Shown here: positions 4,371 through 31,489 of the stretch, piece by piece | How the letters are laid out: each line of letters starts with the position of its first letter | Numbering within the stretch: position 1 is the first letter of the stretch | Assembly (NCBI RefSeq): GCF_003044035.1 | Contig: NZ_NVQC01000017.1 | Span: 180,001 to 212,000 of the forward strand | Length of the DNA: 32,000 nt | Direction: 5' to 3' | DNA from: Candidatus Methylomirabilis limnetica | GTDB lineage: Bacteria > Methylomirabilota > Methylomirabilia > Methylomirabilales > Methylomirabilaceae | The notes under the pieces: model-generated | Told to the model about the DNA's origin: nothing | What the model saw: only the letters and a program-made list of their open reading frames with translations | Database searches by the model: none | Made by a program: the position numbers and the translations under genes

Positions 4371-4392
4371 GCCTCGATCAAATCCCCCCTCG

Positions 4393-4413
4393 CCCCCCTT
4401 TATCAAAGGGGGG
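4393..4413. repeat. Solo copy of the C6TTT-N3-AAAG6 palindromic unit (hairpin) between the hydrolase and GNAT genes
   Basis: cccccctttatcaaagggggg, preceded by cccccctcg. This is the same unit as the two copies inside copA. It lies 23 nt after the hydrolase stop and 11 nt before the GNAT ATG. Confidence 0.7.
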
Positions 4414-4424
4414 TTGGAGAGATT

Positions 4425-5234
4425 ATGGACGCGTCGATTCGCACTACCCTGGATTCTTACGAAACCTACCTCGTCGAGCACAACCGCTCCATGGGGTGCA
4501 TGGTGACCATCAGGCACCCGTTCGTGCTTTTCACGAACGACGAGATCGCCGTGCCCTGGTACAACTATGCCGGCGTCGTACCGTGGAGCGAGATCCCAGG
4601 GCGCGAGTGCATCGAGGAGGTCATGGCGCACTACCGCGCGCGGGGCTATAGCCCGCACTTCACGTTCACGCTCGAGACAGCGCCGGAGGGACTGGCCGAG
4701 GCATTGCAGTCGGCGGGCTGTGCGCTCGAGTCCCACAAGTACGTCATGTTTCAGTACGAGCCGGTCGACCCGTCGGTACCGGCAGACGTGCGGCTGGGCA
4801 AGACAGGGCCTGAGGACATGCCGGCCGCGGGGCGCATCCTGGGCGTCAGTTTCGATTCGGGCGAGTCGGCGTGGCAGGATCCAACGGTGCGTATCCGGCT
4901 GGTTGCGCGTATGCGTGCGGCGCGCATGCACCAGCTCGGCGCGTGGGTGGATGGACAGCTTGCCGCAGCGGCACATCTGCACACGGGCGTCGGTGTGGGA
5001 CATATTACCGGGGTAGCCACCGCTCCGGAGTTCCGCGGGCGCGGTCTGGCCGGCCTGCTCACCGCGTACGCCGCACGCTTCGCCCGCGAAGAAGGCGCCA
5101 CGCTCGTCGCGCTCGAGGTAGCCACGCCGGACGCGGAGCGTGTGTACGCGCGCATCGGCTTCAGGCGCGCGGTAGAACGAGTTGAGTATAGTGTAACTAC
5201 TCAGGTAGATAGGCTGAAGGCTGAAGGCTTTTAG
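4425..5234 (+). CDS. GNAT-family N-acetyltransferase; the last 13 codons are supplied by a repeat element
   Basis: Acetyl-CoA binding motif A: ITGVATAPEFRGRGLAGLLTAYAARFAREEG. The C-terminal VTTQVDRLKAEGF-stop is encoded by the left terminal repeat of the element starting at 5193. Confidence 0.8.
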   Translation: MDASIRTTLDSYETYLVEHNRSMGCMVTIRHPFVLFTNDEIAVPWYNYAGVVPWSEIPGRECIEEVMAHYRARGYSPHFTFTLETAPEGLAEALQSAGCALESHKYVMFQYEPVDPSVPADVRLGKTGPEDMPAAGRILGVSFDSGESAWQDPTVRIRLVARMRAARMHQLGAWVDGQLAAAAHLHTGVGVGHITGVATAPEFRGRGLAGLLTAYAARFAREEGATLVALEVATPDAERVYARIGFRRAVERVEYSVTTQVDRLKAEGF

Positions 5235-5545
5235 GGGTAAGTCATGCGTGATCGTAACTACTCAGGTGTTTAGGCTGTAGGCTGAAGGCTGTTAGCCATT
5301 GCGCATGGACCGAATCAAGGCGCCCAGAACCTTTTCGGCCTCCATCATGTTCGCGTCGCATTCAGAAAACGCCTGGCTCATCTGTGCGCGTTCCTACAGT
5401 CTAAAAGACTACAGTCTATCCACCTGAATAGTTACGCGTGATCAAAGAAAACTCAGAAAAGGTCTTGAATGGCTCGATTCGTGCCTTGCTAGATAATTTA
5501 GAACCTTCAGCCTTCAGCCTTCAGCCTAAACACCTGAGTAGTTAC
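5193..5545. mobile_element. MITE-like element (outer copy) with terminal inverted repeats GTAACTACTCAGGT-N5-(GGCTGAA)n, carrying a deleted four-helix-bundle protein gene remnant
   Basis: Left end is gtaactactcaggtagataggctgaaggctgaaggc. Right end is ccttcagccttcagccttcagcctaaacacctgagtagttac. The interior aligns with the element at 7898-8135 (…atgcgtgatc / …gaaaaggtcttgaatggctcgattcgtgccttgctagataattt). No clean target duplication is seen for this copy. Confidence 0.75.
5254..5435. mobile_element. Second, variant copy of the same element family nested inside the outer copy, flanked by an 8-bp direct repeat GCGTGATC
   Basis: Its ends are gtaactactcaggtgtttaggctgtaggctgaaggc and ctacagtctaaaagactacagtctatccacctgaatagttac. 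GCGTGATC occurs at 5246-5253 and again at 5436-5443. The interior read on the minus strand gives ...EAEKVLGALIRSMRNG-stop, a four-helix-bundle protein C-terminus. Confidence 0.8.
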
Positions 5546-5546
5546 C

Positions 5547-5834
5547 TTAGATCTTCGCCGGTCTATGACCGGCTGACTTCAATTCATGGTCGATGCGTTC
5601 GCTCAGGAACACCTTGAGCAATGACTGATATGGTACATCGCGTTTGTTCGCCAGGAGCTTCAACTCTTCCAACATGATTTCCGGCAGCCGCAACGATATC
5701 GTTTTTACAGAAGGGTGAAGCCGGGGAAAGAGCATCCTCCTGCCCTTCTTCCAATCGATGTAGTCCGTCGAGTCGGCCGTCGCCCAAAACTCGCGCTCTT
5801 CATCTTCCGACGAAAACCTCGGGATCTTCTTCAT
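5547..5834 (-). CDS. brnA: BrnA-type antitoxin (CopG/RHH-like)
   Basis: 95 aa. EDEEREFWATADSTDYIDW...KTISLRLPEIMLEELKLLANKRDVPYQSLLKVFL is typical of BrnA. Its start overlaps the brnT stop (ATGA). Confidence 0.85.
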   Translation of the reverse strand: MKKIPRFSSEDEEREFWATADSTDYIDWKKGRRMLFPRLHPSVKTISLRLPEIMLEELKLLANKRDVPYQSLLKVFLSERIDHELKSAGHRPAKI

Positions 5835-6133
5835 GACGCCTTATACTCCCTTCGCTCCTTCTTACTCATGTCTCTGGCCGAAATCACACGGATCAGATTG
5901 CGTCGGAGCGTAAAGACCACCAGCAACAGCCTCCCGGCATCGGTCTGGCCAAGAGCATACAATCGTTCCTCGACCTGGGAATGCACCAGGTCTTCGACAA
6001 CAATAAGCGGACAATTGAAAAATATCTGCTCACACTCCGCAGCCGTCACGCGGTGATTTACCCAGCTCTTGAGGACATTTCCCTCGTCCCAAAGAAATCC
6101 TGTACACTTGGCCATCTGCTCGTATACGTCCAT
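5831..6133 (-). CDS. brnT: BrnT-type toxin (DUF497 ribonuclease family)
   Basis: 100 aa. FLWDEGNVLKSWVNHRVTAAECEQIF...HSQVEERLYALGQTDAGRLLLVVFTLRRNLIRVISARDMSKKERREY matches the DUF497 pattern. Confidence 0.85.
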   Translation of the reverse strand: MDVYEQMAKCTGFLWDEGNVLKSWVNHRVTAAECEQIFFNCPLIVVEDLVHSQVEERLYALGQTDAGRLLLVVFTLRRNLIRVISARDMSKKERREYKAS

Positions 6134-6205
6134 ACGATATGTATATTATGACAGTATACACATGTCAAGAGGATAGACCAACAGACGGGCTGTTGAATTT
6201 TTTTC

Positions 6206-6234
6206 TTGACACTGCTCCGGTCAACATTTATCCT
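6206..6234 (+). promoter_or_regulatory. Sigma70-like promoter for fur (TTGACA-17 nt-TATCCT)
   Basis: TTGACA at 6206-6211, a 17-nt spacer, TATCCT at 6229-6234, in the AT-rich divergent region between brnT and fur. Confidence 0.35.
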
Positions 6235-6252
6235 GGGCTGGTTAATCGACAT

Positions 6253-6267
6253 TGACAATCGTTTTCA
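6253..6267. promoter_or_regulatory. Fur-box-like site upstream of fur (possible autoregulation)
   Basis: tgacaatcgttttca matches TGATAATCATTATCA at 12/15 positions. It lies 13 nt upstream of the fur ATG. Confidence 0.4.
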
Positions 6268-6279
6268 TTTTCTTATGCT

Positions 6280-6753
6280 ATGAAGGCTAAACTTCTCCAA
6301 TTCCAGCAGTACCTTCATCGAGCCGGGCTGAAGGCGACCCGCCAGCGCGAGTTGATCGCACGGGCCTTCTTCGCCACGACGACGCACGTCAGCGCCGAGG
6401 GCCTCTATCGCCAGGTGGGGGGTCGGAACCCACGGATCGGGCTCGTCACCGTCTATCGGACACTGAAACTCCTGAAGAACGCCGGGCTTGCCCATGAGCG
6501 ACAGTTCGGCGATGGGCGCGGCCTGTTCGAGCACGCATCCAGTGAGCGCCACCACGATCACATTATCTGCACCGAGTGCGGCAAGATCACCGAGTTCGCA
6601 AGCTGCGAGATCGAGGCGCTGCAGGAACAGATCGTCCGTAGGTTGGGTTTCTCCATTCAGTACCACAAGCTGGAGCTGTACGGTCTCTGTCGCGACTGTG
6701 GCGCGAACGTCAGCAGAGGACCCGGTAAGGTCTCTGCGATTGTGGCCGGATGA
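6280..6753 (+). CDS. fur: Fur-family metalloregulator
   Basis: 157 aa. Winged-helix LKATRQRELIARAF, metal-site HHDHIICTECGKITEF and C-terminal CRDCG. It lies immediately upstream of an Fe(III)-type ABC importer. Confidence 0.85.
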   Translation: MKAKLLQFQQYLHRAGLKATRQRELIARAFFATTTHVSAEGLYRQVGGRNPRIGLVTVYRTLKLLKNAGLAHERQFGDGRGLFEHASSERHHDHIICTECGKITEFASCEIEALQEQIVRRLGFSIQYHKLELYGLCRDCGANVSRGPGKVSAIVAG

Positions 6754-6786
6754 GGCCCCCGGAAGAAGCCTTTTTAGGCGACCTTA

Positions 6787-6801
6787 TTGAAAATGATTGT
6801 C
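6787..6801. promoter_or_regulatory. Fur-box-like site upstream of the iron ABC transporter genes
   Basis: Within ttgaaaatgattgtc, the core GAAAATGATTGTC matches GATAATGATTATC at 11/13 positions. It sits between the fur stop (6753) and the binding-protein ATG (6843). Confidence 0.45.
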
Positions 6802-6842
6802 TTTGTCATGCGGCGTCCCGAGATCCGCAGCTAGGAGGTGTA

Positions 6843-7877
6843 ATGGCACGTTTCAGAAGGCTGGTGCGTAGTAGGCGCCTCTCAACACGACTCCTGTCCT
6901 CTTGGGTCTTACTCCTTACCGTATCGTTGCTCTTACACGTACACGCTTCTGCATCGGCCTCCGAGTTAGTCATCTACTCCGGCCGTAAAGAGAGCGCGAT
7001 TAAGCCGGTAGTGGAACTCTTTGAGCGGCAGACCGGCATCAAGGTTGCGCTGAAAACGGGCAAGACCTCCGGCCTCGCGAACGAGATGCTCCAGGAACGG
7101 CAGCGGCCGAGGGCCGATATCTTTATCGCCACCGAGGCCGGTGTCTGCGAGATCCTTGCGAAGGAAGGGCTACTGGAGCCGTATACCTCTCCCGGCGCCC
7201 GCGCGATGCCGGCCTCGCACAAGAGTGCTCGCGGGCTTTGGACCGGTATCTCCGGACGCGCCAGGGTCATCATTTACAACAAGAACCTCGTGAGGGAGAG
7301 CGATACCCCGAACTCGATATTAGACCTGACCGAGGCCAGGTGGAAGGGGAAGATCGCCATCGCCGGTACGCGCGAGCGGACGACCCTCGCCTGGCTGAGC
7401 GCCTTGGTGGAGGTCATGGGCGAGGCGAAGGCCAAGGCGTACATCGATAAGCTGATCGAGAACGGTCTGAAGGTCCTGCCTGACAACTCCGATGTCTGGC
7501 GCGGCGTAGGGAGCGGTGAGTTCGCCGTGGGATTGACTAACTCACCCAACTACCACCTGGCCCTTGAAGCGAAGCTGCCGATCGGGGTCGTGTATCCGGA
7601 TCAAGGGCCTGCAGGCATGGGCGTCATGGTCAACCCGAATGCTGTAGCAATCGTGAAGGGCGCAAAGAACCTCGACCAGGCCAGGCAATTCGTCGATTTC
7701 CTCTTCAGTAAGCCTGCCCAGGAACTCCTGGTTCACCACGCCTTCGAGATCCCGCTCCTTCCCGGGATAGACCCTGGCCCGGTCCGGCCGCTCGCGGGGT
7801 TCAAAGCGCTCCAGATCAGTCAAGAGCGCCTGGCTGACCTGGAGGATAAAACCATCGCCCTCTTCCCCGGTCTGTAA
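6843..7877 (+). CDS. Fe(III)-type ABC transporter periplasmic substrate-binding protein (FbpA/AfuA-like)
   Basis: The start was moved to ATG 6843, with a GGAGG 5 nt upstream. Signal peptide MARFRRLVRSRRLSTRLLSSWVLLLTVSLLLHVHASA. The mature part, VIYSGRKESAIKPVVELFERQTGIKV...ADIFIATEAG, is typical of iron(III) solute-binding family 1 proteins. Confidence 0.8.
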   Translation: MARFRRLVRSRRLSTRLLSSWVLLLTVSLLLHVHASASASELVIYSGRKESAIKPVVELFERQTGIKVALKTGKTSGLANEMLQERQRPRADIFIATEAGVCEILAKEGLLEPYTSPGARAMPASHKSARGLWTGISGRARVIIYNKNLVRESDTPNSILDLTEARWKGKIAIAGTRERTTLAWLSALVEVMGEAKAKAYIDKLIENGLKVLPDNSDVWRGVGSGEFAVGLTNSPNYHLALEAKLPIGVVYPDQGPAGMGVMVNPNAVAIVKGAKNLDQARQFVDFLFSKPAQELLVHHAFEIPLLPGIDPGPVRPLAGFKALQISQERLADLEDKTIALFPGL

Positions 7878-7897
7878 GGGCCGGCCGAACATCTAAC

Positions 7898-8135
7898 GTA
7901 ACTACTCAGGTAGACAGGCTGAAGGCTGAAGGCTGAAGGTTTTTAGTGACAAATCATGTGCGATCACACAAAACTTCGGGCATTTGAGTTGGCGGATGAA
8001 GTAGCAATATTGGTTTATCGGGTTGAACAAGAAGTCATAGAAACCGAGGAGGTCTTGAACGGCTTGATTCGTGCCTTGCGGGATAATTCAGAGCCTTCAG
8101 TCTTCAGCCTTCAGCCTAAACACCTGAGTAGTTAC
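7898..8135. mobile_element. MITE-like element of the same family inserted between the binding-protein and permease genes, with an 8-bp target duplication CATCTAAC
   Basis: 42-nt terminal repeats: gtaactactcaggtagacaggctgaaggctgaaggctgaagg and ccttcagtcttcagccttcagcctaaacacctgagtagttac. CATCTAAC occurs at 7890-7897 and 8136-8143. Confidence 0.85.
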
Positions 8136-8153
8136 CATCTAACAACATGGTGA
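7956..8153 (+). pseudogene. Internally deleted four-helix-bundle protein (23S rRNA intervening-sequence protein family) remnant carried by the element
   Basis: The N-terminus KLRAFELADEVAILVYRV and C-terminus EEVLNGLIRALR match the two ends of the ~120-aa family, but the middle is missing. The reading frame runs through the right terminal repeat. Confidence 0.55.
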
Positions 8154-8163
8154 AGCGCAAGAC

Positions 8164-9801
8164 ATGGCCGGCAGCGACGTGCGACGCGTAGGCCCGAGAC
8201 AGTTCGCCACGCTGTGGCGGTCGCAGGCAGTGGGGCTTCAGCCTGCAATCGCCGCCGGGACGGCCCTGATTATCCTTCTGACCGCCTCTCCCTTGGTCAG
8301 TCTCTTGACTTCTGCCTTCACCGGAGGGCCGAAGGCTTTTTCGATCCTCATGAACAGCTCCGTACTTTCGCTGATCGCGCGGACTGTGTTGCTCGCCACC
8401 CTCGCTACGTTGTGGGCTATAATCCTTGGGTTGCCACCCGCCTGGATCCTCACCCGCACGGACATCCCGGGGCGACGTTTTCTCCGGATCGTGGGGGTCC
8501 TGCCGCTGGCGATCCCCCCATACATCGGCGCCTTTACGTACATCACGCTGCTCGGTCCCGTCGGGTGGGTCAATAAGATCTTCCAGGCTATGGGTACCAG
8601 CGGGCCGATCGTGAACATCTATGGCCTGTGGGGCGGGGTCCTGGTGCTCGGCCTGTTTACCTATCCGTACATCCTCCTCATTGTCGGCAGTGCCCTCAAG
8701 GGAAGCGATCCGGCTCTCGAAGAAGCGGCCAGAGCCGCAGGTCTTGGGCCGTTTGGTATCTTCCTTCGGGTCACGTTCCCCCTGCTGCGCCCTAGCCTCC
8801 TGGCCGGAGCGCTGCTGGTCTTTCTCTACGCCCTCTCGGACTTCGGCGCCGTCTCGTTGCTCCGGGTCGACACCTTTACCACCGAGATCTTCCATCAGCT
8901 CAATACCCGCTTCGACCAGCGGAATGCGGCCGCCCTCTCCATTATCCTGGTCATCCTGACGGCCGTGGTCCTGATGGCCCAGCGGAAAAGCTTGGGCCGC
9001 CGCGGTTTCGTCCAGCGGCGAAGCGGTGTCAGACCACCCACCATCTACCCTCTCGGGCGATGGAAGGTGCCGGTCCTTTGCTGTACCTATCTCATCATCG
9101 CCGGCTCAGTCTTTCTGCCGGTTGCGCTACTCCTCTACCAAACCGGCTCACCGATGAGCTTCCTGCGCACGCTCATCGCCGGCCACCGCTATCTTTGGAA
9201 CAGTCTCTGGACGGCGACCGTGGCGGCGACGGCGGCATCGGGACTTGGGCTCTTCGTCGCCTACCTTACCCAGCGCCGAAAGGGGTTGGCGCCGCTCATC
9301 CTCACGTCCGCGACCCAACTCGGGTATGCCATCCCCGGCACAGTCCTTGGGCTGAGCCTGATCCTCCTCTACAATGCGTACCTGCCATGGATCTACGGAA
9401 CCGCCGCCATGGTGATCATCGGCTACCTCCTGCGGTTTCTCCCACAAGCGGTCCAGGGTAGTACGGCCGCGATGATTCAGGTCAATCGGAACCTGGAGGA
9501 GGCGGCCCGTAGCCTTGGCCGGTCCACCTGGCAAGCGCTTCGAGAGGTCACCATCCCCCTCATCCGACCGGGGATTGCAGCAGGATGGATGCTCGTCTTT
9601 ATCTCTTCGATGAAGGAGCTGGCCGCCACGCTCCTCCTCCGCCCGGCCGGGTTCGACACCCTGTCGGTCAGGATATGGATCGCCTCCATTGAGGTTGATT
9701 ACGCCGGGGCTGCGGCGACCTCACTGATTCTCATCGCCATCACCGCGCTCCCCCTCTTCCTCATCAGCCGACTTGACGCCACCGTCTCACAGCTCGATTG
9801 A
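8164..9801 (+). CDS. Fe(III)-type ABC transporter permease, fused two-module (FbpB-like)
   Basis: 545 aa with about 12 hydrophobic segments and two EAA loops (LEEAARAAGLGPFGIFLRVTFPLL and LEEAARSLGRSTWQALREVTIPLI). Confidence 0.88.
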   Translation: MAGSDVRRVGPRQFATLWRSQAVGLQPAIAAGTALIILLTASPLVSLLTSAFTGGPKAFSILMNSSVLSLIARTVLLATLATLWAIILGLPPAWILTRTDIPGRRFLRIVGVLPLAIPPYIGAFTYITLLGPVGWVNKIFQAMGTSGPIVNIYGLWGGVLVLGLFTYPYILLIVGSALKGSDPALEEAARAAGLGPFGIFLRVTFPLLRPSLLAGALLVFLYALSDFGAVSLLRVDTFTTEIFHQLNTRFDQRNAAALSIILVILTAVVLMAQRKSLGRRGFVQRRSGVRPPTIYPLGRWKVPVLCCTYLIIAGSVFLPVALLLYQTGSPMSFLRTLIAGHRYLWNSLWTATVAATAASGLGLFVAYLTQRRKGLAPLILTSATQLGYAIPGTVLGLSLILLYNAYLPWIYGTAAMVIIGYLLRFLPQAVQGSTAAMIQVNRNLEEAARSLGRSTWQALREVTIPLIRPGIAAGWMLVFISSMKELAATLLLRPAGFDTLSVRIWIASIEVDYAGAAATSLILIAITALPLFLISRLDATVSQLD

Positions 9802-10985
9802 GCGCAGCGATGGATAACGGGGCGGGAAAGATGACAGGAGGGATCGTGGCGGCAGGAACGAAGGTCATCCCGCGTGAGACAGCAGTGAATGCCGTGCCGA
9901 TCTCACCACCGCGTCCCATGGTTATCCGGCTCGATCGGGTGAGCAAGCACTATGGGGACGACACGATCCCCGCGGTAGAGGAAATCTCCTTCTCCGTTGA
10001 GCGAGGAGAGATCCTGGTGTTGTTGGGACCGAGCGGCTGCGGAAAGACCACGACGCTACGCCTGATCGCCGGGTTTGAGGCCCCTGATAGCGGGCGGATC
10101 GAGATTGGTAGCCGAACGGTAGCCCACGACACGATCTTGCTGCCACCGGAGCAGCGAGGCGTGGGCATGGTCTTCCAAGACTATGCGCTCTTCCCGCACC
10201 TGACAGTCCTGGAGAACGTCGCATTTGGCCTACGCCGCTATAATGCGGAGCAACAACGGAGCCGAATCGCGGAGGCGTTGGACTTGGTAGGACTCTCAAC
10301 CCTTCAGGGACGGTACCCGTATGAGCTCTCCGGCGGGCAGCAGCAACGGGTTGCTCTGGCGCGTGCGCTGGCCCCCGGCCCGCAGGTCGTCTTGTTGGAT
10401 GAGCCGTTCAGTAACCTGGATGCCGATATGCGGACGCAGATACGGGAAGATGTCCACTCGATCCTCCGCCAAGCCGGGACTACCGCCATTTTCGTGACCC
10501 ATGACCAGGAGGAGGCGTTTGTCATCGCCGATCGTGTTGGGGTACTGAACCATGGGCGCCTGGAGCAGCTCGACCATCCGGAGGCGATCTACCATACGCC
10601 GGTCACCCGTTTTATCGCTCAGTTCGTCGGTTCGGCCGATTTCATCCCCGGCCTCGTCCAAGGCGAGAGAATCACCACGGAGCTGGGCACGTTCCCGAAC
10701 CAGCAGGGGCTTTCGGTAGGGCAGGCGGTGGAGCTGATGATCAGGCCAGACGATATCGACCTGATCCCCGATGAGGCGAGCGAGGCGACCGTGATCACCA
10801 GGCAGTTCCGTGGCCCAGACAACCTCTATTGCGTGCGCCTGCCATCCGGCCAGAAGATTCACAGCAGCCAGGGTTCAACGAAGCTCATCGAGCCGGGGAC
10901 CAGGGTCACCGTAAAAGCCAATCCGACCCATGTGGTCTGTTTCGATGTAACAACTCAGGTGGATAGGCTGAAGGCTGAAGGCTGA
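9798..10985 (+). CDS. ABC transporter ATP-binding protein (FbpC-like); the start is probably downstream (ATG 9810 or 9918); the last 12 codons are supplied by a repeat element
   Basis: Walker A GPSGCGKTT, signature LSGGQQQR, Walker B VVLLDEP, and a TOBE-like C-terminal domain. The track start is a TTG overlapping the permease stop. MVIRLDRVSKHYG (ATG 9918) looks like a typical N-terminus. The C-terminal VTTQVDRLKAEG-stop is encoded by the element starting at 10947. Confidence 0.85.
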   Translation: MSAAMDNGAGKMTGGIVAAGTKVIPRETAVNAVPISPPRPMVIRLDRVSKHYGDDTIPAVEEISFSVERGEILVLLGPSGCGKTTTLRLIAGFEAPDSGRIEIGSRTVAHDTILLPPEQRGVGMVFQDYALFPHLTVLENVAFGLRRYNAEQQRSRIAEALDLVGLSTLQGRYPYELSGGQQQRVALARALAPGPQVVLLDEPFSNLDADMRTQIREDVHSILRQAGTTAIFVTHDQEEAFVIADRVGVLNHGRLEQLDHPEAIYHTPVTRFIAQFVGSADFIPGLVQGERITTELGTFPNQQGLSVGQAVELMIRPDDIDLIPDEASEATVITRQFRGPDNLYCVRLPSGQKIHSSQGSTKLIEPGTRVTVKANPTHVVCFDVTTQVDRLKAEG

Positions 10986-11290
10986 AGGTTTTGATGGGTA
11001 ACGCAGTGATCACACAAAACCGTGGACATGCGAGTTGGCTAATGAACGACCGCGCAGCAAGCTGCGGGGTATCGTCTTCTGTTCTGGCCCGTCATTCCGT
11101 GCTTGACACGGAATCCAGTCGGACCCTCTGGATACCGGCGCCTGCCCCGGACTCCGATCCGGGGTCCACCGGTATGACGAACTCGCGGCAAGCCGCGGGG
11201 TATCAACCCTTAACGAAATGAAGTCGCGATTTGAGGAGATAAACTGAAGACGAGCTTTTAACGGTTCCAAGATTTCACGGAATAAGAGAA
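10947..11290. mobile_element. Degenerate third copy of the MITE-like family (left terminal repeat intact, right end eroded), interrupted by a different repeat
   Basis: The left end is gtaacaactcaggtggataggctgaaggctgaaggctgaagg. Then atgggtaacgcagtgatcacacaaaaccgtggacatgcgagttggctaatgaa parallels atgtgcgatcacacaaaacttcgggcatttgagttggcggatgaa of the 7898 copy. A weak match to the C-terminal part (gacgagcttttaacggttccaagatttcacgg) lies near 11255-11285. No right terminal repeat is present. Confidence 0.55.
11048..11215. repeat. Hairpin-rich repeat unit bounded by 21-bp direct repeats (CGCRGCAAGCYGCGGGGTATC), inserted in the element remnant
   Basis: Direct repeats lie at 11053-11073 and 11184-11204, and each contains a CGCRGC-AA-GCYGCG palindrome. 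Internal hairpins: attccgtg-cttgac-acggaat, ccccgga-ctccga-tccgggg and ataccggcg...caccggtat. ORF 10991..11221 merely translates this repeat. Confidence 0.5.
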
Positions 11291-16597: not shown

Positions 16598-17434
16598 ATG
16601 GAGATACCGATGGCCGCGAAACGATCGACGCAATCAACGGATTTGCCGGGCAGCGAGTTGGATCCGGCGAAAATGCCGGGTCACTGGCTCCTTGCCCGAC
16701 TTGGCAAGCGCGTCTTGCGCCCCGGAGGTCTCGGTCTAACGCGAGCGCTGCTCGATAGCTTGGCGATCGGACCGGACGACGACGTAGTCGAGTTCGCACC
16801 CGGCCTGGGCGTGACGGCGCGTATGATCCTGGAGCGGAAGCCTCGGCGCTATGTGGGCGTCGAGCGGGACGCAAAGGCAATGCAGTGGACGGCCCGACAA
16901 CTCCCCCGCAGCCCGAATGTATCAGTTATCGTCGGCGCCGCAGATCAAACGAATCAACCTGACGGCTCGGCATCGGTCGTCATCGGCGAGGCCATGTTGA
17001 GCATGCACACCCAGGAGCGAAAGCGCCTGATCGCGGCGGAAGCGTTCCGGCTCCTGCGTCCTGGGGGCCGCTACGGCATTCATGAGCTCGCTGTTGTTCC
17101 CGACGATATGCCGGCCGACCAAAAGCAGGAGATCGACGGTATGTTGTCGTCGGTGATCCATGTTGGCACCCGCTCCTTGCCAGAACACGAGTGGAGGGCC
17201 CTGTTGGAGGGAGTCGGATTCCGCGTCGTAGCGTCCGGATACGCGCCGATGCACCTGCTGAGGCCGCGGCGCCTAGTCCAGGATGAGGGGGTATTCGGAG
17301 CGCTGAGGCTCGCGAAGAACCTCCTACTCGATGGCGCGGCGCGGCGACGGGTAGTCGCGATGCGACGGGTGTTCGAGCATTATCGTAACAACCTGAGCGC
17401 GATCTTCCTCATCGCGCAGAAGGGTCTGGATTGA
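16598..17434 (+). CDS. Class I SAM-dependent methyltransferase
   Basis: Motif I VVEFAPGLGVTA and post-I/II LRPGGRYGIHEL. 278 aa. Convergent with the gvp cluster. Confidence 0.75.
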   Translation: MEIPMAAKRSTQSTDLPGSELDPAKMPGHWLLARLGKRVLRPGGLGLTRALLDSLAIGPDDDVVEFAPGLGVTARMILERKPRRYVGVERDAKAMQWTARQLPRSPNVSVIVGAADQTNQPDGSASVVIGEAMLSMHTQERKRLIAAEAFRLLRPGGRYGIHELAVVPDDMPADQKQEIDGMLSSVIHVGTRSLPEHEWRALLEGVGFRVVASGYAPMHLLRPRRLVQDEGVFGALRLAKNLLLDGAARRRVVAMRRVFEHYRNNLSAIFLIAQKGLD

Positions 17435-17692
17435 ACCGGCCTAGTAGCTCTGTTGTGCGCATGGGTGGTTGGGGTATGGCGCGTTGATACTCCGCCCGCT
17501 GTATGAGATGTGGGGAAAAGGCTGGGAGCACCGATCTCCTCGGTCCTCACGAGCCCTATGCCCATGAGATCCCGACCCCACTAGTCATTCGGGAGGATGT
17601 AAAGTTAGAGTACGGTGAGCGCCGTCCCACCGTTGGATGGGCTACGCTATCGAGATGTCAGGAGAGAGCTATCCGTTGACGGGTTGGCGTGA

Positions 17693-18037
17693 TCACATCA
17701 GGTCCCCGAGCGGCCCGAGCGACAGGTTGAGGTCGTCCTCGGCGAGGCCGAAGTGTGCCCGGAGTTCCACCATCTTCTCCTCCAGCCGGATGAAGGTCAC
17801 CCCCATCCGCTCGATCTCCTCGGAGGTGAGGGAGCCCCCCTCCATCCTTCGAAGGGCCTGACGCTCGAGAAGCTTTCTGAGGAGTTCGATGAGGGTGAGC
17901 ACGAGCTTGGCCAGCCCCTGCTCGACCTTCTCAGGGTCGGCGTTGATCCGTCTCGGCAGGGCCTGGGTGAGCTGCTCCAGCTCCCCCTCAAACTCCGCCA
18001 GAGAGCTCTCAGGCGCCGAGAGTGTCTTTGGTTTCAT
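17693..18037 (-). CDS. gvpK: Gas vesicle protein GvpK
   Basis: RINADPEKVEQGLAKLVLTLIELLRKLLERQALRRMEGGSLTSEEIERMG is the canonical GvpK core. The start was moved to ATG 18037 (MKPKTLSAPE), which gives a 29-nt overlap with the upstream gene. Confidence 0.88.
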   Translation of the reverse strand: MKPKTLSAPESSLAEFEGELEQLTQALPRRINADPEKVEQGLAKLVLTLIELLRKLLERQALRRMEGGSLTSEEIERMGVTFIRLEEKMVELRAHFGLAEDDLNLSLGPLGDLM

Positions 18038-18737
18038 CGTGGGCTCCGTTGACGAAGTGGTAGGGAGGCCAGGGGCCGGTGAGGAGGAAGCTAAGGCGGG
18101 GAAACTCTTCCCGGATCTTTGCCACGCCTTCACGGAAGGCGTCCACTCGATCCCGCTCCACCAGATAGGCCCCGGTGAGAAGCAGCCGCTCTGTGGGGAA
18201 CCGCTGGAGCCGGCTTTCCCCAGCCAGGGAGGGGAAAGAGGCCTGGAGCTCCTGAATCAACCGCTCCCCCGCCGCTCGAAACCTAGCCCGATGCCGCTCC
18301 TCCGTAAGCCTCCTGTGGAGGTATTCCGTTCCAGGGCCTTCATCGCTAGTCTTTTGATCCACCGCCGTGGCGGAGTCACCAGGCGGTTCCCAGAGCACCC
18401 TGAGCCCCAGCTCCACCTTTCCTGTCACCCGCTCCAGCGCAGAGCGGAATGGCCGAGCGCGTTCGTTGAGGAGCGCGATCGCAGCATCCTCAGTTCTGAA
18501 GAGCGTGTTGAAGCGGGCGGGAAGGACAGGGCGGGAGATCATCACCTCCTCTAGCACCGTCTCGTGGAGGGTCAGGTGGTCTTCGTCGACGGGCCATAGG
18601 GTGAGCGGCGACCGGCTGACCACAGCGGCTAGGTCCCCCTGCGGAACAAGGAAGACGGGACGCCTCCCGAGCCCAACGATCTGCTGTAACAGCGGCGGGG
18701 GGAAGGCGACGATCCCGTAAAGGTAGATCCCCTCCAT
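18009..18737 (-). CDS. GvpL/GvpF-family gas vesicle protein (paralog 5)
   Basis: The N-terminus MEGIYLYGIV...VFLVPQGDLAAVVS...LHETVLEEVM...VLPARFNTLF and the C-terminal LTGPWPPYHFV are hallmarks of the GvpL/F family. Confidence 0.85.
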   Translation of the reverse strand: MEGIYLYGIVAFPPPLLQQIVGLGRRPVFLVPQGDLAAVVSRSPLTLWPVDEDHLTLHETVLEEVMISRPVLPARFNTLFRTEDAAIALLNERARPFRSALERVTGKVELGLRVLWEPPGDSATAVDQKTSDEGPGTEYLHRRLTEERHRARFRAAGERLIQELQASFPSLAGESRLQRFPTERLLLTGAYLVERDRVDAFREGVAKIREEFPRLSFLLTGPWPPYHFVNGAHDETKDTLGA

Positions 18738-18740
18738 GGC

Positions 18741-18950
18741 TCACTCCTCGACGCTCTTAACACCCCATTCCCTAGCCGTTTCCACAGAGCAGAGGAGGAG
18801 CCGGAGACCAACATAGATGAGGTCCACATCGGCTACGGATAGGGTCACATCCCCCGCTACCACGACGCCCTTGTTGAGGAGGCGGTCCAGCGTCTCGAGG
18901 AGCGTGACCTGCCGTTCCAGGCTGGAAGCAGGCCGGCCGTTATCCTTCAT
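18741..18950 (-). CDS. GvpA/GvpJ-family small gas vesicle protein (GvpJ/M/S-like)
   Basis: TLLETLDRLLNKGVVVAGDVTLSVADVDLIYVGLRLLLCSVETA is a GvpA-fold core. The start was moved to ATG 18950 (MKDNGRP...). Confidence 0.82.
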   Translation of the reverse strand: MKDNGRPASSLERQVTLLETLDRLLNKGVVVAGDVTLSVADVDLIYVGLRLLLCSVETAREWGVKSVEE

Positions 18951-19743
18951 CGTCAAGCCTCGGGACAAAGTGGTATGGTGGCCAGGGGCCCGAGACAACG
19001 AGCCTGAAGGCTTCTTCGGCATGGCTCTGGTTCCACTGCTCCACCCCGGAGAGGAGGTCCTCCACTCCCTCCCGCCTCACGAGACAGGCCAGATTAAGCA
19101 CGATCCTCTCCCCCTCTCTGGCCTCGGGGAGGATGGAAGGATACTCCACCAGCTCCACCACTTTCCCCCGGAGGGCCTCCAGCGCCTGACTGGCAAGCGC
19201 ATCTTCACGCTCCTGGGATTTCGTCGAGGCGCTCTCCTCGATTTTTCTCTTGAGGAAGAATGCCAGCCCGGGCGGTTTAGTGCTTGCCTCGCGGGCCAAG
19301 GCAAGGAGCGCCGCATCGTTCTTGAGCACGGCGGCTCGAAGGGCCGTCCGGTCCGCGAACCCCTTCACGCCCCACTCGACCTTATCTCTCAGGAACTCCA
19401 GGGCCTCTTGGATGCGCCGAGTATTCCTCCGAATGACCGACCGGATCGTCCCCGCGTCAAGGAAGATAGTGCCAAACCTCATCGGGAGAAGCGGACCCGT
19501 GGCCAGAGCCGACTCCACGATCGACTCGTGAAGGCGCACTTTCTCCTCCAGCCAAGAGGGGTCCTCCAGGTTGCGGCGGAGAGCCTCCTCCCCGAACTCG
19601 GTCAGGGGGACCGGGCTGGACAGTGCCACGATCCCGTTCTCGGCGATGAGGCTCAAAGGAGAGTGCCCGTCGATTCCCATCATTGGCGGCAGGTCTCCGT
19701 GGGGGGAAAAAGCATAGAGGTACCAGCCAATCTCGGAAGGCAT
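18940..19743 (-). CDS. GvpL/GvpF-family gas vesicle protein (paralog 4)
   Basis: WYLYAF...IVALSSPV...LHESIVESA...LLPMRFGTIF...SGPWPPYHFV. ATG 19743 forms an ATGA overlap with the upstream stop. Confidence 0.85.
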   Translation of the reverse strand: MPSEIGWYLYAFSPHGDLPPMMGIDGHSPLSLIAENGIVALSSPVPLTEFGEEALRRNLEDPSWLEEKVRLHESIVESALATGPLLPMRFGTIFLDAGTIRSVIRRNTRRIQEALEFLRDKVEWGVKGFADRTALRAAVLKNDAALLALAREASTKPPGLAFFLKRKIEESASTKSQEREDALASQALEALRGKVVELVEYPSILPEAREGERIVLNLACLVRREGVEDLLSGVEQWNQSHAEEAFRLVVSGPWPPYHFVPRLDDEG

Positions 19744-20357
19744 CAGCGCTCCTTTGCGTCCCACAGTGGGAGCCGATCGATGAGAAACTCCACCTGGATT
19801 CCCTCTGGCAGGAGCCGATCCACTTCGTGCATCATCCCCAGGAAGAGGAGAGCCACTTCACCCTCCTCCAGGGTCTCGGCAATCCGCTGGGCGATGAAGG
19901 TGTCCCGCGCCTTCAGGATCTCCGCGCTCTCAGCAGCGTAGCTCCGCTTGGCCTCTTCCCGCTCGGCGTCTGTCTGGGCCTCGGTGATCTGCTTAACGTG
20001 GGCGTACTCTCGAAGTAAGAGCTCTGGTGACTCGGTCCCAATCAGCTTCGCCCCCTTGTCAACCAGCTCAAGGACGATCTGGTAGTTCTTACTCCCCTGG
20101 GCTGCCACACCCCGCGCAATCTCCAGCTCTTTCCCCGAGACGGGCAGGCCGTCCTGATAGATCCTGACCCGCTCCCACGGGAGATTCCTGATCAGGAGCT
20201 TCGCCCTGATCCCCTCCCAGACATCATCAATGACCCGTCGGCTCCGCTCCCAGCTTTCGACCCCGAATCGTCTGATGGACTCCTGCCGGAGCGCCTCCGA
20301 CTTGGACCCCATATCCGCCATGGTGTGAATGATGGGGACGTAGATGAGCCGCCTCAT
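19743..20357 (-). CDS. Hypothetical protein embedded in the gvp cluster (204 aa from ATG 20357); no family recognised
   Basis: MRRLIYVPIIHTMADMGS...RIYQDGLPVSGKELEIARGVAAQGSKNYQIVLELVDKGAKLIGTES...ALLFLGMMHEV. There is no TM segment. It is tightly packed: 4 nt after the receiver gene stop, and its own stop overlaps the next ATG. Confidence 0.6.
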   Translation of the reverse strand: MRRLIYVPIIHTMADMGSKSEALRQESIRRFGVESWERSRRVIDDVWEGIRAKLLIRNLPWERVRIYQDGLPVSGKELEIARGVAAQGSKNYQIVLELVDKGAKLIGTESPELLLREYAHVKQITEAQTDAEREEAKRSYAAESAEILKARDTFIAQRIAETLEEGEVALLFLGMMHEVDRLLPEGIQVEFLIDRLPLWDAKER

Positions 20358-20361
20358 CGCG

Positions 20362-23829
<3,468 letters not shown>

Positions 23830-23833
<4 letters not shown>

Positions 23834-24345
23834 GCGCTCTTGCCGGCCTTAGCGACAGTGACCTCCAGGATGCCGTTCCGGTAGGAGGTCTTCAGCGATT
23901 CCTGCTTTCCCTTGGCAGGGAGGAGAATCTCTTTGCTGTACTTCCGGTCCTTGCCCTCGGCGGAGATGGTGAGAATGTCATCTTTCAGCTCTACCCGGAC
24001 GTCACCGGTATCCACTCCGGGCATCTCGGCAATCACTCGGATGGCCTCGTTCTCATCGAAGACGTCTACCAGCGGCTCCCGCACCTCCTCGACCACGGCC
24101 CCCGCTTCGCCCTTCTTGATGTTGCCGAAGGTCTCGACGGTGGGTTCGCCCCCCAGGCCGACCTTGACGTTGAAGCCGTACACTCCTCTCAGATCTTTAA
24201 GCCGCCCTTTCCCCCTGAGCTCCCCCGTGCGAGTCGTCTCGGTCTTCCCCTCCGCCTCCATCTCCTTGAGGAGCTCGATGAGGTCGCCAATTCCCTTGAA
24301 GAGGTCGCCGAGGCCGAATCCCGCTCCACCTTTTCGCTCTGTCAT
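23830..24345 (-). CDS. Hsp20/alpha-crystallin family protein (GvpH-like)
   Basis: Alpha-crystallin domain: VDVFDENEAIRVIAEMPGVDTGDVRVELKDDILTISAEG...SKEILLP...SYRNGILEVTV. The start was moved to ATG 24345, with a GGGAGGAAG RBS. Confidence 0.82.
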
Positions 24346-24361
24346 ATCTTCCTCCCATGCC

Positions 24362-24655
24362 TTACCCGCCGAGGCGGGCCTCAAGTCGGTCAAGCCGCTC
24401 CTTGAGTTGATGGTTCTCCTCTTCCAGGACCCTGGCCTTCGAGGAGAGGGCGGGGTCGCTCTGCCACCAGTCGATTCCCATCTCCTTGGCCTTCTCCACC
24501 GAGGCGACCAGGAGCCGGATCTTGATGGTCAACAACTCGACGTCGGCGAGGCAGATCTTGATGTCGCCGGCGATGACGATCCCCTTGTCGAGGACCCGTT
24601 CCAGGATGTCAGCCAGGCTGGTGGTCTGGATGCTGTGGGGGATGTTCTGTGGCAT
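24362..24655 (-). CDS. gvpJ: Gas vesicle protein GvpJ
   Basis: SLADILERVLDKGIVIAGDIKICLADVELLTIKIRLLVASVEKAKEMGIDWW is the canonical GvpJ core, followed by a C-terminal coiled tail. Confidence 0.88.
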   Translation of the reverse strand: MPQNIPHSIQTTSLADILERVLDKGIVIAGDIKICLADVELLTIKIRLLVASVEKAKEMGIDWWQSDPALSSKARVLEEENHQLKERLDRLEARLGG

Positions 24656-24664
24656 GTCGTCCCC

Positions 24665-24859
24665 CTACCGTCCCACTCTGGCCGGCTCGACCCTCGCCCC
24701 GCAGGACGGACAGAACTTGTAGTCATCCTTGTAGATGTACCGCCACGTTCCCCCGCACTCGGGGCATCGCCGTGTTAACGGCTCCCCGCACTTCGTGCAA
24801 TGCTTGAGCGCCCCCCACGTCGTCTCCCCACACCCCGGACACTTGAATGACCCTACCAT
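24665..24859 (-). CDS. Double zinc-ribbon protein (four CxxC pairs), 64 aa
   Basis: MVGSFKCPGCG...HCTKCG...RCPECGG...FCPSCGA. ATG 24859 lies 4 nt after the gvpG stop. The longer track N-terminus overlaps gvpG. Confidence 0.6.
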   Translation of the reverse strand: MVGSFKCPGCGETTWGALKHCTKCGEPLTRRCPECGGTWRYIYKDDYKFCPSCGARVEPARVGR

Positions 24860-24863
24860 AGCG

Positions 24864-25196
24864 TTACACCTCCCCTTCATGCGGGGGCCCACCGCTGCCA
24901 GTCACGGCATCGCCCCCACCGGTCTCCGCAGGGCCTGGCACCGCCTCACCTCCCGCCAACTCCACCTCTTCGTCGGCCTGCCGGACGGCATTGAGCCTCG
25001 CCTCCCATTCCGCTGCTTGCACAGTGTACTCCGCCTCGCCGATCTCGTCCATCTCGTAGAGGAGTTGGAGTTCCAGGAGCTTTTCCTGGATGTACCCCTC
25101 ATCGTTCTGCTCCCGGTCGGCCATCTCGTGGATCTTCTCGAAGACGCCGATGAGGCCCTTGAAGGGGAGCGCGATGAGATCGTCAATGAGGAGCAT
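24864..25196 (-). CDS. gvpG: Gas vesicle protein GvpG
   Basis: MLLIDDLIALPFKGLIGVFEKIHEMA...LLELQLLYEMDEIGEAEY is the canonical GvpG N-terminus. An AGGAGAGG RBS is present. Confidence 0.85.
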   Translation of the reverse strand: MLLIDDLIALPFKGLIGVFEKIHEMADREQNDEGYIQEKLLELQLLYEMDEIGEAEYTVQAAEWEARLNAVRQADEEVELAGGEAVPGPAETGGGDAVTGSGGPPHEGEV

Positions 25197-25207
25197 GAAT
25201 TCCTCTC

Positions 25208-25951
25208 CTAGACCTGAATGACCAGGTTCACGAAGTTGAAGGGGGGGAACCCCCCCACATACTTGAACCTGACCATCTCCCGATACCGCTCAGCCAGCTC
25301 GTCCATTCTCCGATCAAAGGCCGCCTCCTGGTCCCGGTCTATCAGGAAGGCCGCATTCATGATCATCCGCTCCCCCAGGAGCCGATTGGTCAGGCGGAAG
25401 TCGTGACAGGCCCCCTTCAGCGCCTCCACGATCTCCTCCCGGACTCTATCCTTCTCGACCTTAAGGGCCGCCTCCACCATCCTCCCAACCTCGACAAGCT
25501 GCCAGTGGGCCTGCTGGGGAGGCAGTTTGGCGATGGCCTCTTTCCGCCTCCGGATCTCCCCGTATCGCTCGAGAATCTCTTGGTATATGAGCGTTTCGTT
25601 GAAGATCGCCTTCACCCCCACCTCCACCTTTCCGCGCATCCGCTCCAGGAGGCCCCTGAACTCGACATACTCCCGCTCCAGGATGGCCCGCACCCTCGCT
25701 TCGTTCTCGGCAATAGTGCAGAATCGGGCGGGCAGGACAGTATGGCATTTGAAGACGGCCTCAATGGCCCGCTCGTGAACCAGCGAGTTCTCCCGAGAGA
25801 CGGGATAGCGCATGACGGGGGAGTCGCTCACGATGGCTGCAATGTCGCGATACGCGATGGCGGTCAACTCATCATCCCGGCCGCCGATTCCTAAAAGGCC
25901 GAAGCTCTCCTCTCGAGCCTCATCCGTGACGCAATAGATGTACTTTCCCAT
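25208..25951 (-). CDS. GvpL/GvpF-family gas vesicle protein (paralog 3)
   Basis: MGKYIYCV...IAYRDIAAIVS...VHERAIEAVF...VLPARFCTI...YVGGFPPFNFV. The start was moved to ATG 25951. Confidence 0.85.
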   Translation of the reverse strand: MGKYIYCVTDEAREESFGLLGIGGRDDELTAIAYRDIAAIVSDSPVMRYPVSRENSLVHERAIEAVFKCHTVLPARFCTIAENEARVRAILEREYVEFRGLLERMRGKVEVGVKAIFNETLIYQEILERYGEIRRRKEAIAKLPPQQAHWQLVEVGRMVEAALKVEKDRVREEIVEALKGACHDFRLTNRLLGERMIMNAAFLIDRDQEAAFDRRMDELAERYREMVRFKYVGGFPPFNFVNLVIQV

Positions 25952-25970
25952 AGAGGAAATCCCTTCTGAG

Positions 25971-26723
25971 TCACTCGTCAGGGTGGAGGATGATGTTGAC
26001 AAAGTTGTAAGGGGGGACTGGCCCCACGTAGGCGAACTTCACGCGTTCCCGGTATCGAAGGGACAGCCGCTCCATCTGGTCGTCGAACTCCTTCTCCCTG
26101 GCCCGATCCACCAGGAATGCAGCGTTGAGGAACATCCTGTCGCCGACGGTCGCGTTGAGACGGTGCTCCGCAGCCAGACGCCTCAATACCCAGAGGATCT
26201 GCTCTCCCTCCCCCTCCTTCTTCGCCTCCAGGGCGGCCTGGACCATCTTGCCGATGGCGATCCGCTGAGGATGGGTCTGACGGGACGGCTGCCTGGCGAT
26301 CTCCGCCTTCAGATGCTTAATCGCCTCGTTCTCATCCACGATCTCCTGGAAGAGGAGATCCATCTCCCGCCAGAAGGCCTTCACCCCCAGCTCCACCTTC
26401 CCGTCCAGGTCTCGCAGGAGATGTTTCAGTTCCTGGTACCGCCGCTCCAGGAGCTGCCGGATCTCCTCAGCGTTCTGGGCGACAGTGCAGTATCTGACCG
26501 GGAGGACAGTATGCTCGTTCATGACTCGCTCCAGTACCCGCTCATGGGCCAGGAGGTTCGCCTTGCTGACCTCATACTTGCGCAAGGGTGCAGTACTCAT
26601 GACCGCGCTGAGATCCCGGTAGGCGATGGTCTCGACCTCCCGGCCGCCCAGGCCGATGGGGCCGAAGTTCCTTTCCTCGTTGGTCCCGATGATCGCATAC
26701 AGGTACTTCCCCTCCTCACGCAC
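25971..26723 (-). CDS. GvpL/GvpF-family gas vesicle protein (paralog 2)
   Basis: GKYLYAIIG...IAYRDLSAVMS...AHERVLERVM...VLPVRYCTV...YVGPVPPYNFV. GTG start at 26723 with an AGGAG RBS. It overlaps the upstream gene by 8 nt. Confidence 0.85.
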   Translation of the reverse strand: MREEGKYLYAIIGTNEERNFGPIGLGGREVETIAYRDLSAVMSTAPLRKYEVSKANLLAHERVLERVMNEHTVLPVRYCTVAQNAEEIRQLLERRYQELKHLLRDLDGKVELGVKAFWREMDLLFQEIVDENEAIKHLKAEIARQPSRQTHPQRIAIGKMVQAALEAKKEGEGEQILWVLRRLAAEHRLNATVGDRMFLNAAFLVDRAREKEFDDQMERLSLRYRERVKFAYVGPVPPYNFVNIILHPDE

Positions 26724-28166: not shown

Positions 28167-28195
28167 GATACCCTATCCCCTCCCCAGTGATCTCA

Positions 28196-28516: not shown

Positions 28517-28529
28517 GGCTGCCTCCCGA

Positions 28530-28697: not shown

Positions 28698-28712
28698 CAG
28701 AGCCACCTCCCC

Positions 28713-29633: not shown

Positions 29634-29642
29634 GGATACCTC

Positions 29643-30543: not shown

Positions 30544-30586
30544 CGGGCTTACCTGAACGCTTCTCTTTCCTCTCAACTCTTCCCTC

Positions 30587-31201: not shown

Positions 31202-31217
31202 TGGTTCCAGGCCGACC

Positions 31218-31433: not shown

Positions 31434-31461
31434 TGTCAATCACCTCCTTTCGGTTTTTCCC

Positions 31462-31489
31462 CTTGCCACCGTTCACCGGCTCTGGCAAA
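31462..31489. promoter_or_regulatory. Palindrome TTGCCA-N14-TGGCAA in the 61-nt gap between the response regulator and gvpA
   Basis: TTGCCA at 31463-31468 and TGGCAA at 31483-31488. The only intergenic gap directly upstream of gvpA contains this dyad. It may be a regulator site or an RNA hairpin. Confidence 0.3.

Follow-up and report, generated by a model that had tools for sequence, protein, structure and literature searches.

Small inverted-repeat elements with heptamer-armed ends and a four-helix-bundle gene in Candidatus Methylomirabilis limnetica and other bacteria

The stretch of DNA analysed here, 32,000 nucleotides of Candidatus Methylomirabilis limnetica (contig NZ_NVQC01000017.1, positions 180,001 to 212,000; hereafter the window), carries several copies of a small element made up of terminal inverted repeats (TIRs), tandem heptamers and remnants of a gene for a four-helix-bundle protein. 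Searching the window for the 14-bp terminus GTAACTACTCAGGT with at most two mismatches revealed seven matches against 0.05 expected, four on the plus strand (5193, 5254, 7898 and 10947) and three on the minus strand (5422, 5532 and 8122). They resolve into an outer copy (5193-5545), an inner copy nested within it (5254-5435), a third copy (7898-8135) and a solitary left end at 10947, all packed within 5.9 kb (5193-11046) and about 92% alike among themselves; neither the remaining 26 kb of the window nor the 8 kb beyond its start yielded any more termini. Two to four tandem heptamers were present at all copy ends, in line with an earlier note, made from the letters of this DNA, that had described shared termini followed by tandem heptamers in all copies.

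The left part of the outer copy (5193-5253, plus strand) consists of the TIR (5193-5206), the 5-nt spacer AGATA, GGCTGAA heptamers (5212-5229), a Shine-Dalgarno-like TTTTAGGGG and the ATG (5244-5246) of the four-helix-bundle frame, and its right part (5444-5545, plus strand) holds C-terminal codons (..EKVLNGSIRALLDN), inverted heptamers, a spacer and the second TIR (5532-5545). Between the two lies the inner copy, a 182-bp MITE (miniature inverted-repeat transposable element) of a second subfamily, which displays GACTGTA/GGCTGTA heptamers, is oriented on the minus strand and has kept nothing of the gene but its last ~30 codons (...MMEAEKVLGALIRSMRNG*). It is flanked by a perfect 8-bp duplication, GCGTGATC, at 5246-5253 and 5436-5443. 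Direct reading of the sequence thus agrees with the earlier description of one copy inserted in opposite orientation into another, of its variant GGCTGTA/CTACAGT heptamers and of the duplication around it. The site hit had been placed in the start region of the four-helix-bundle open reading frame (ORF) and, indeed, upon alignment with the third copy and with a full-length copy, the target 8-mer GCGTGATC overlaps the ATG of the outer copy's frame.

Located between the genes for the binding protein and the permease of an iron ABC transporter, the third copy (7898-8135, plus strand) is a 238-bp internal-deletion derivative with 3+3 heptamers inside its TIRs and a fused ORF remnant of 65 aa (7956-8153), bracketed by the duplication CATCTAAC at 7890-7897 and 8136-8143. 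It had been regarded as intact-looking, which it is not: aligned to the full-length element, it equals that form minus ~222 internal nt from the interior of the ORF, no Pfam hit is obtained and the 65-aa ORF fuses the N- and C-terminal ends of a 118-aa protein. The truncated fourth copy (10947 to ~11046, plus strand) comprises heptamers and the initial ~17 codons behind a left TIR that has one mismatch; its right end was not found, and an unrelated repeat begins at ~11047. This dispersed repeat (~11047-11210), bounded by the direct repeats CGCAGCAAGCTGCGGGGTATC / CGGCAAGCCGCGGGGTATC, apparently truncates the fourth copy, and related sequence was seen in a sister strain (L131, 159-225) and beside a four-helix-bundle gene (L157, 1445-1464). 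The duplication around the third copy, the truncated fourth copy and the missing duplication of the outer copy, taken up below, were not mentioned in the earlier note.

Contigs of sister strains from other samples, 98-100% identical to the window, were retrieved via the Fur protein encoded in it. Five of them (L131, L132, L133, L134 and L138) display the precise empty site of the third copy, reading ...GAACATCTAACAACATGG... (...GGCCGAACATCTAACAACATGG...), with a single CATCTAAC and a length exactly 246 bp (238 + 8) shorter than the filled site, and two others (L129 and L130) carry the copy. The nested insertion has its empty site in L130, where the outer copy is uninterrupted and contains GCGTGATC only once. 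Both insertions are polymorphic inside one species-level population, and that we are dealing with a mobile TIR element generating 8-bp target duplications is virtually certain. The nested insertion had been taken as proof of recent mobility; mobility is borne out by L130, and the claim that it is recent stands only in part, the insertions being polymorphic among strains 98-99% identical but the copies in the window not being identical to one another.

The full-length (master) form measures ~430-455 bp, and its internal-deletion MITEs 86-250 bp. It is composed, in this order, of the 14-bp TIR GTAACTACTCAGGT, a 5-nt spacer, 2-4 heptamers, a Shine-Dalgarno-like TTTTAGGG, the gene for a 118-aa protein of the PF05635 family, inverted heptamers and the second TIR. 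A 453-bp representative (L113, 467-919) shows the duplication TATTTTAA and has TTTTAGGGACAAATC ahead of the ATG of its 118-aa ORF, and another one with an intact ORF (L121), whose end reads GTAAGTA, duplicated AAAGGAGA, the ribosome-binding site of gatC. Intact PF05635 ORFs between TIRs with an 8-bp duplication were also found in L149, L163, L199 and L212. None of these six full-length copies contains or adjoins a transposase, the 118-aa protein being the only one encoded. Further copies of the element are plentiful, and copies with an intact ORF of about 120 aa, suggested in the earlier note as objects to look for, are among them.

Profile searches assigned the full-length ORF to PF05635 (23S_rRNA_IVP; E 8e-34, 116.5 bits with a cut-off of 33.8) and to TIGR02436 ('four helix bundle protein'; E 2e-34, 117.9 bits with a cut-off of 24), and it also matched the solved pentameric structure of XCC0516 (PDB 2gsc; E 3e-26). 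Avd, the accessory protein of diversity-generating retroelements, gave only a weak match (PF22296, E 0.002; NF033474, E 1e-5, 25.5 bits against a cut-off of 80), and no reverse transcriptase was present in any copy neighbourhood inspected. More than 120 protein-database clusters comprise 118-aa proteins 89-99% identical to the master protein, mostly on contigs shorter than 3 kb, as expected because the element is an assembly-breaking repeat. The PF05635/TIGR02436 family as a whole is far larger, with 18,982 clusters at 50% identity reaching E ≤ 1e-3, and as late as 2024 the domain was described in a paper as 'functionally uncharacterized'.

The ORF remnants in the window have no Pfam hit on their own, though they align at the DNA level to the 453-bp full-length element and its PF05635/TIGR02436 ORF, which confirms their earlier identification as remnants of a four-helix-bundle gene. 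Compared with the full-length form, the outer copy is without ~290 internal nt, and the nested copy has its full-length counterpart, of the second subfamily, in L224 (C-terminus ...VLGALIRSMRND) and its closest short relatives, 90-93% identical, in Ca. Methylomirabilis sp. bin48. These alignments identify the window copies as internal-deletion derivatives of two master subfamilies. Element sequence has also taken the place of the native stop regions in two genes, a GNAT acetyltransferase ORF (4425-5234) and an ABC-transporter ATPase ORF (9798-10985), both of which end in the element-encoded tail VTTQVDRLKAEG(F)*; the latter reads into the fourth copy and ends at the TGA of this copy.

A scan for the terminus together with the first heptamer, in a single genome of each species, yielded at least 120 stretches. 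Among the matches listed, termini occur in metagenome-assembled genomes (MAGs) assigned to about nine phyla, namely Ca. Methylomirabilis (Methylomirabilota), Nitrospirota, Nitrospinota, Desulfobacterota/'Deltaproteobacteria', Brocadiaceae/Anammoxibacter (Planctomycetota), Elusimicrobia (Elusimicrobiota), Desantisbacteria, Bacteroidales (Bacteroidota) and Pseudomonadota. A scan of viral contigs, a blastn search of plasmids and an Rfam search each returned no hits. Pairing of plus and minus termini defined 83 elements with 166 ends, spanning 86-525 bp with a mode at ~165-180 bp. Their flanking 8 nt matched at all eight positions in 36 elements and at seven in 15, whereas the offset control, taking the next 8 nt outward, gave no perfect match and a single one at seven positions. 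The 36 perfect duplications represent 35 different sequences and are thus variable target duplications rather than conserved element sequence; in more than 80 elements of other genomes, the MITE-like family with 8-bp duplications that had been proposed from the window was recovered. The duplicated target is 74% AT, with a purine favoured at position 1 and a pyrimidine at position 8, the consensus being roughly RAWWWWTY and weakly palindromic.

Over the 166 ends, positions 1-14 are conserved to 85-98%, and the same 14-bp ends are common to subfamilies with GGCTGAA, GACTGTA and GGTTCAC heptamers. The 5-nt spacer is asymmetric: it reads RGATA where the gene starts and GTTYA where it ends. Elements of only 90-112 bp (L071, L040 and L067), consisting of TIRs, heptamers and a short loop, display perfect duplications, which means that the gene is not needed in cis. 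A still smaller mini-element of 47 bp (L036, 5132-5178) has two GTAAC TIRs 19 nt apart and no duplication.

To the gene itself, 80 metagenomic loci with sequences 71-97% identical were assigned, with 77 complete copies among them. Internal stops are lacking in 64 of the 77, the median pairwise Nei-Gojobori ratio of nonsynonymous to synonymous substitution rates (dN/dS) is 0.116 over 706 pairs, and changes at third positions dominate. The low ratio and the few internal stops indicate that the gene is functional in master copies and under purifying selection, and no remnant there. It is co-directional with its upstream neighbour in 50 of 59 cases and with its downstream neighbour in 38 of 47; orthologous loci are among them, so that not all cases are independent. 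Seven Nitrospira-like metagenomic heptosyltransferase loci (L167, L170, L172, L176, L183, L188 and L205) share orthologous, apparently fixed insertions between lipopolysaccharide-core genes, with the four-helix-bundle ORF and the heptamers intact and the 14-bp TIRs decayed to varying degree. Intact ORFs beside decayed TIRs argue that selection on the protein outlasts mobility.

We consider the family to be, in all likelihood, a non-autonomous TIR transposon, i.e., a cargo transposon with MITE derivatives, that is moved in trans. Its mobilisation would be due to a putative DDE-type transposase that recognises the 14-bp ends and makes staggered cuts of 8 bp. Mobile insertion cassettes (MICs) carry passenger genes, an example being MIC231 of Bacillus cereus, and in the terminology of insertion sequences (IS) the full-length form is such a cassette, with transposon ends around a passenger gene and no transposase. 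Like MITEs and MICs, the family is small, has exact TIRs, a duplication of fixed length, many copies, an internal-deletion series and nested insertions, lacks a transposase and carries a passenger gene in its longest form. Unlike them, it has no known matching autonomous IS, has heptamer arrays at its ends, holds a constant PF05635 cargo under purifying selection and shares the same 14-bp ends in about nine phyla. The kind of element is therefore known; this family, its constant cargo and its cross-phylum spread appear to be new, as does the heptamer-armed architecture common to rRNA intervening sequences and ISL3 elements. The literature searched, with subscription journals and ISfinder outside its coverage, contained no link of PF05635 genes to transposition with TIRs and duplications and no mention of the terminus.

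One candidate for the enzyme acting in trans comes from elements that have the identical architecture and include a transposase, namely one of the ISL3 family. Inside an 84-nt inverted repeat (GGTTCTTGGCAACTTTTGGTGATC, then GGCAGAG heptamers) on plasmid pCC7120gamma of Nostoc PCC 7120, the gene of an ISL3 transposase (PF01610, E 2e-32, with the ISL3 zinc ribbon in addition) precedes that of the four-helix bundle. A plasmid of Nostoc HK-01 reveals the same layout, the TIRs over both Nostoc elements measuring 76-84 nt (GGKTCTTGGCAACTTTTGGTGATC plus GGCAGAG heptamers), and the alpha plasmid of PCC 7120 carries a disrupted second copy with an identical right boundary. On a Geminocystis plasmid, the gene stands alone between GGCTCTTC-type TIRs and heptamers, with the perfect 8-bp duplication AATAAAAA. 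The ISL3 family makes 8-bp target duplications. This length, together with the gene and heptamer arrays held inside the TIRs of the cyanobacterial elements, makes an ISL3-like enzyme a possible, still tentative choice; the ISL3 ends, however, are of the GGYTCTT (GGCTCTT) type and not GTAAC, and no ISL3 transposase with GTAAC ends was found. An IS66-like enzyme is a rather doubtful candidate, as is, to the same degree, one of another family. Hallmarks of IS66 are an inverted repeat starting with GTAAGCG and an 8-bp direct repeat (PMC11946415), and our ends likewise begin with GTAA (GTAAC, or GTAAG in L121) and have an 8-bp direct repeat, but GTAACTA (GTAAGTA in L121) agrees with the 7 signature bases at only 4-5 of them, and the TIR has a length of 14 bp instead of 20-30 bp.

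Several results weigh against a transposon moved in trans by such an enzyme. An autonomous element with GTAAC ends was found neither in the window, nor in the 8 kb beyond it, nor in 1.25 Mb of related loci, so that the remark in the earlier note that no transposase is in view holds for this whole range, and tblastn with the Nostoc ISL3 transposase gave no match in the 1.25 Mb. Alignment of the GTAAC TIR with ISL3-type TIRs and with the TIR of a host-genome IS66 was no better than with shuffles. A search with a motif of the IS66 protein TnpC detected it in no copy of the family; the sole example seen is a truncated TnpC in a host MAG (L081, 3382-4287, minus strand) with the canonical end GTAAGCGCTCAATAAACC (GTAAGCGCTC-type), which is not GTAAC-bounded and was rejected. 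Target duplications are not universal either: 32 of the 83 elements match at six or fewer of the eight flank positions, and the outer copy in the window has no recognisable duplication (AGTATAGT / CTTAGATC). Elements without duplication, including this one, are probably old or rearranged. Many closely related genes have heptamer arms with decayed TIRs or none, several cyanobacterial cassettes display heptamer arms and no detectable TIR, and TIR transposition may not be the sole route by which heptamer-armed cassettes spread. Finally, the taxon labels are bin labels of MAGs, and some contigs could be mis-binned.

Immediately to the right of the outer copy lies a BrnT/BrnA (CopG) toxin-antitoxin pair (5547-6133), which is itself variable; the homology of L131, L132 and L134 to the window begins only at ~6200. 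The variability of this region may account for the unmatched duplication of the outer copy. The TnpC fragment in L081 is separated by 2 kb from a GTAAC element that is solitary and truncated. Pairing termini up to 8 kb apart gave ~3-kb candidates in L224, L167, L188 and L048, which enclose ordinary genes and were discarded. All-against-all clustering of 1,012 ORFs near termini revealed no recurrent transposase-like family, the recurrent families being kinases, ABC ATPases, acyl-CoA dehydrogenases, AAA_14/DUF4143 and HemN. AAA_14/DUF4143-type ATPase genes, assigned by eye from their sequences with no profile search, lie 0.05-3 kb from GTAAC elements in five of the first 120 loci (L015, L040, L047, L086 and L111), with a fragment in L081 (1481-1882), and in none of the 80 metagenomic loci; their proximity could reflect a shared preference for variable regions.

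Since the full-length copies found encode only the 118-aa protein, the ~450-bp element might also be autonomous, with this protein, alone or recruiting a housekeeping host enzyme, acting on the TIR/heptamer hairpin ends as the mobility factor and no dedicated transposase being involved. The strong purifying selection on the ORF would fit this explanation, as would the lack of a partner transposase in 1.25 Mb and an element and gene almost unchanged across phyla, which a self-sufficient unit would attain more easily. Avd, a relative by weak matches, is a nucleic-acid-binding accessory factor of retroelements, which could be read in the same sense. Short TIRs with a duplication fixed at 8 bp are, however, the signature of a DDE-type staggered cut, and no catalytic motif is known in the protein, a small bundle of helices. 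Moreover, orthologous copies with decayed TIRs keep their ORFs intact, pointing to selection independent of mobility, and the Nostoc relatives have a bona fide ISL3 transposase beside the gene, which together make autonomy very unlikely. If true, it would define a new class of minimal transposon, driven by or needing a pentamer-forming Avd-related bundle, and the intervening sequences of 23S rRNA and the roughly 19,000 PF05635 clusters would be its insertions and relics.

The same Avd homology (PF22296 and NF033474, as given above) and the sense orientation in operons, which suggests abundant transcripts, would suit movement through an RNA intermediate, in which the hairpin transcript is reverse-transcribed with the Avd-like protein as cofactor of a host reverse transcriptase. 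Exact TIR ends, a constant 8-bp duplication, no poly-A, no variable 5' truncation and deletion derivatives that lose the interior and not the 5' ends all speak against such a route, as does the lack of a reverse transcriptase beside the copies inspected, leaving it extremely improbable. Even less credit, next to none, can be given to the idea of a structured regulatory or repetitive extragenic palindromic (REP)-like intergenic repeat, or of terminator hairpins, that recombination or gene conversion would have spread, with coincidental flanking 8-mers. Copies do lie in intergenic gaps at gene ends and form very stable hairpins, and the outer copy is without a duplication, but 36 perfect and variable 8-bp duplications stand against none in the offset control, the empty sites of sister strains keep exactly one 8-mer, one copy is nested in another, and identical ends occur at unrelated loci of unrelated phyla with no Rfam match. 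A TIR transposon mobilised in trans thus remains our preferred reading.

The ends of the third copy fold into a stem of 14 + 28 bp, with an RNA fold z of -8.7. In a transcript, the heptamer arms would form a long stem as in the intervening sequences (IVSs) of 23S rRNA, a predicted substrate of RNase III, and, to judge by its sense orientation inside operons, the gene probably owes its expression to read-through from those of the host. The protein could be a cofactor of transposition, bind the RNA stem or have a function beneficial to the host. Within the GTAAC family, covariation of the arms was sought and not found, the arms of one element being no more alike than those of different elements, probably due to the scan pattern favouring GGCTGAA types; complementary arms with lineage-specific heptamers were seen only between distant lineages. 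Tandem heptamers are also known from cyanobacteria, whose STRR (short tandemly repeated heptamers) and small hairpin repeats are intergenic repeats. STRR share with the family inverted arrays of tandem heptamers in intergenic DNA, but the arrays of the family belong to a defined transposon, as its subterminal parts, and lie on either side of a specific gene.

Distant PF05635 genes (33-46% identical) of cyanobacterial plasmids and Azospirillum all lie between inverted tandem-heptamer arrays, the heptamer differing by lineage (TTAGCTG, AAAAGCT, CTGCCCT, AAGGGAA, GGGAGTA, GGGAACA and GAGGACG). The Azospirillum gene is in sense orientation within a large-subunit (LSU) rRNA gene (Rfam RF02541, E 4e-294) and has inverted heptamer arms; its flanks, compared with the E. 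coli sequence, represent the helix-45 region. By its position this copy is a genuine 23S rRNA IVS, and it differs from the window elements in having neither a GTAAC TIR nor a duplication. IVSs sit inside an rRNA gene, at helix 9, 25 or 45; no rRNA lies in the window, and no family copy among the loci was in a helix-45 context. On two cyanobacterial plasmids, pPg_01 of Pseudanabaena (L140) and pANA02 of Anabaena sp. 90 (L234), the gene stands between cas6 and cas4 with heptamer arrays of up to ~18 units, fitting an earlier paper that notes the PF05635 domain scattered among cas genes.

The IVS of Coxiella was reported to measure 428-444 nt, its termini pairing in a 28-bp stem and its S23p ORF being preceded by 2-3 GACAGAT heptamers, and to have a 176-bp internal deletion in one strain; a transposon origin of IVSs is one of several hypotheses (PMC4990558), and their origin has been hypothetical since 1990-93. 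Like our family, the ORF-bearing 23S IVSs of Leptospira, Coxiella, Brucella and Xanthomonas (PMC4990558) are ~430-450 nt long and have complementary termini that pair in a long stem, 2-3 tandem heptamers before a sense PF05635 ('S23p') ORF and internal-deletion variants. The window elements, in contrast, are located in intergenic DNA of protein genes and have an extra 14-bp GTAAC TIR and 8-bp duplications. We infer that the classical ORF-bearing 23S IVSs may belong, as insertions or relics, to the same superfamily as the heptamer-armed four-helix-bundle cassettes. The findings are direct evidence for a mobile-element origin of intervening sequences, an old idea.

At the sequence level, the data prove that the gene and its heptamer arms ride transposons with defined ends, an 8-bp duplication and empty-site polymorphism, and ISL3 relatives that look autonomous carry this gene as well. 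Carriage by a transposon accounts for the multicopy, patchy and cross-phylum distribution of PF05635 and explains why its genes are found between unrelated genes, such as cas6/cas4, and why contigs break at them. The purpose of the IVS protein becomes a testable question: is it a cofactor of transposition or of RNA processing? The signature of 14-mer plus heptamer can be used for annotating these repeats, whose heptamer arrays could mislead repeat or CRISPR finders.

The window displays other repeats as well. Inside the minus-strand gene of a copper-type P-type ATPase, just after the DKTGTLT motif, a 75-nt heptamer hairpin (217-291; GTTTCGR x4 / loop / CGAAACT x4) is inserted in frame and adds 25 residues; GTAAC termini are lacking. 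A HemN-like ORF of Ca. Methylomirabilis bin48 (L044, ~2730-2756) contains these heptamers too, together with the peptide SSFEFRVSS, and the hairpin looks like a second heptamer-hairpin mobile repeat, tolerated inside coding regions. Three intergenic copies of a palindromic repeat with G/C runs (CCCCCCTTTGCTAAAGGGGGG-like), two of them in tandem, are located at 1625-1781 and 4380-4430. Finally, the region from ~17000 to 32000 holds a gas-vesicle cluster with five GvpL/GvpF paralogues, AAA_5 (GvpN-like) and CDC48-type AAA ATPase genes, and its internal direct repeats are due to the paralogues.

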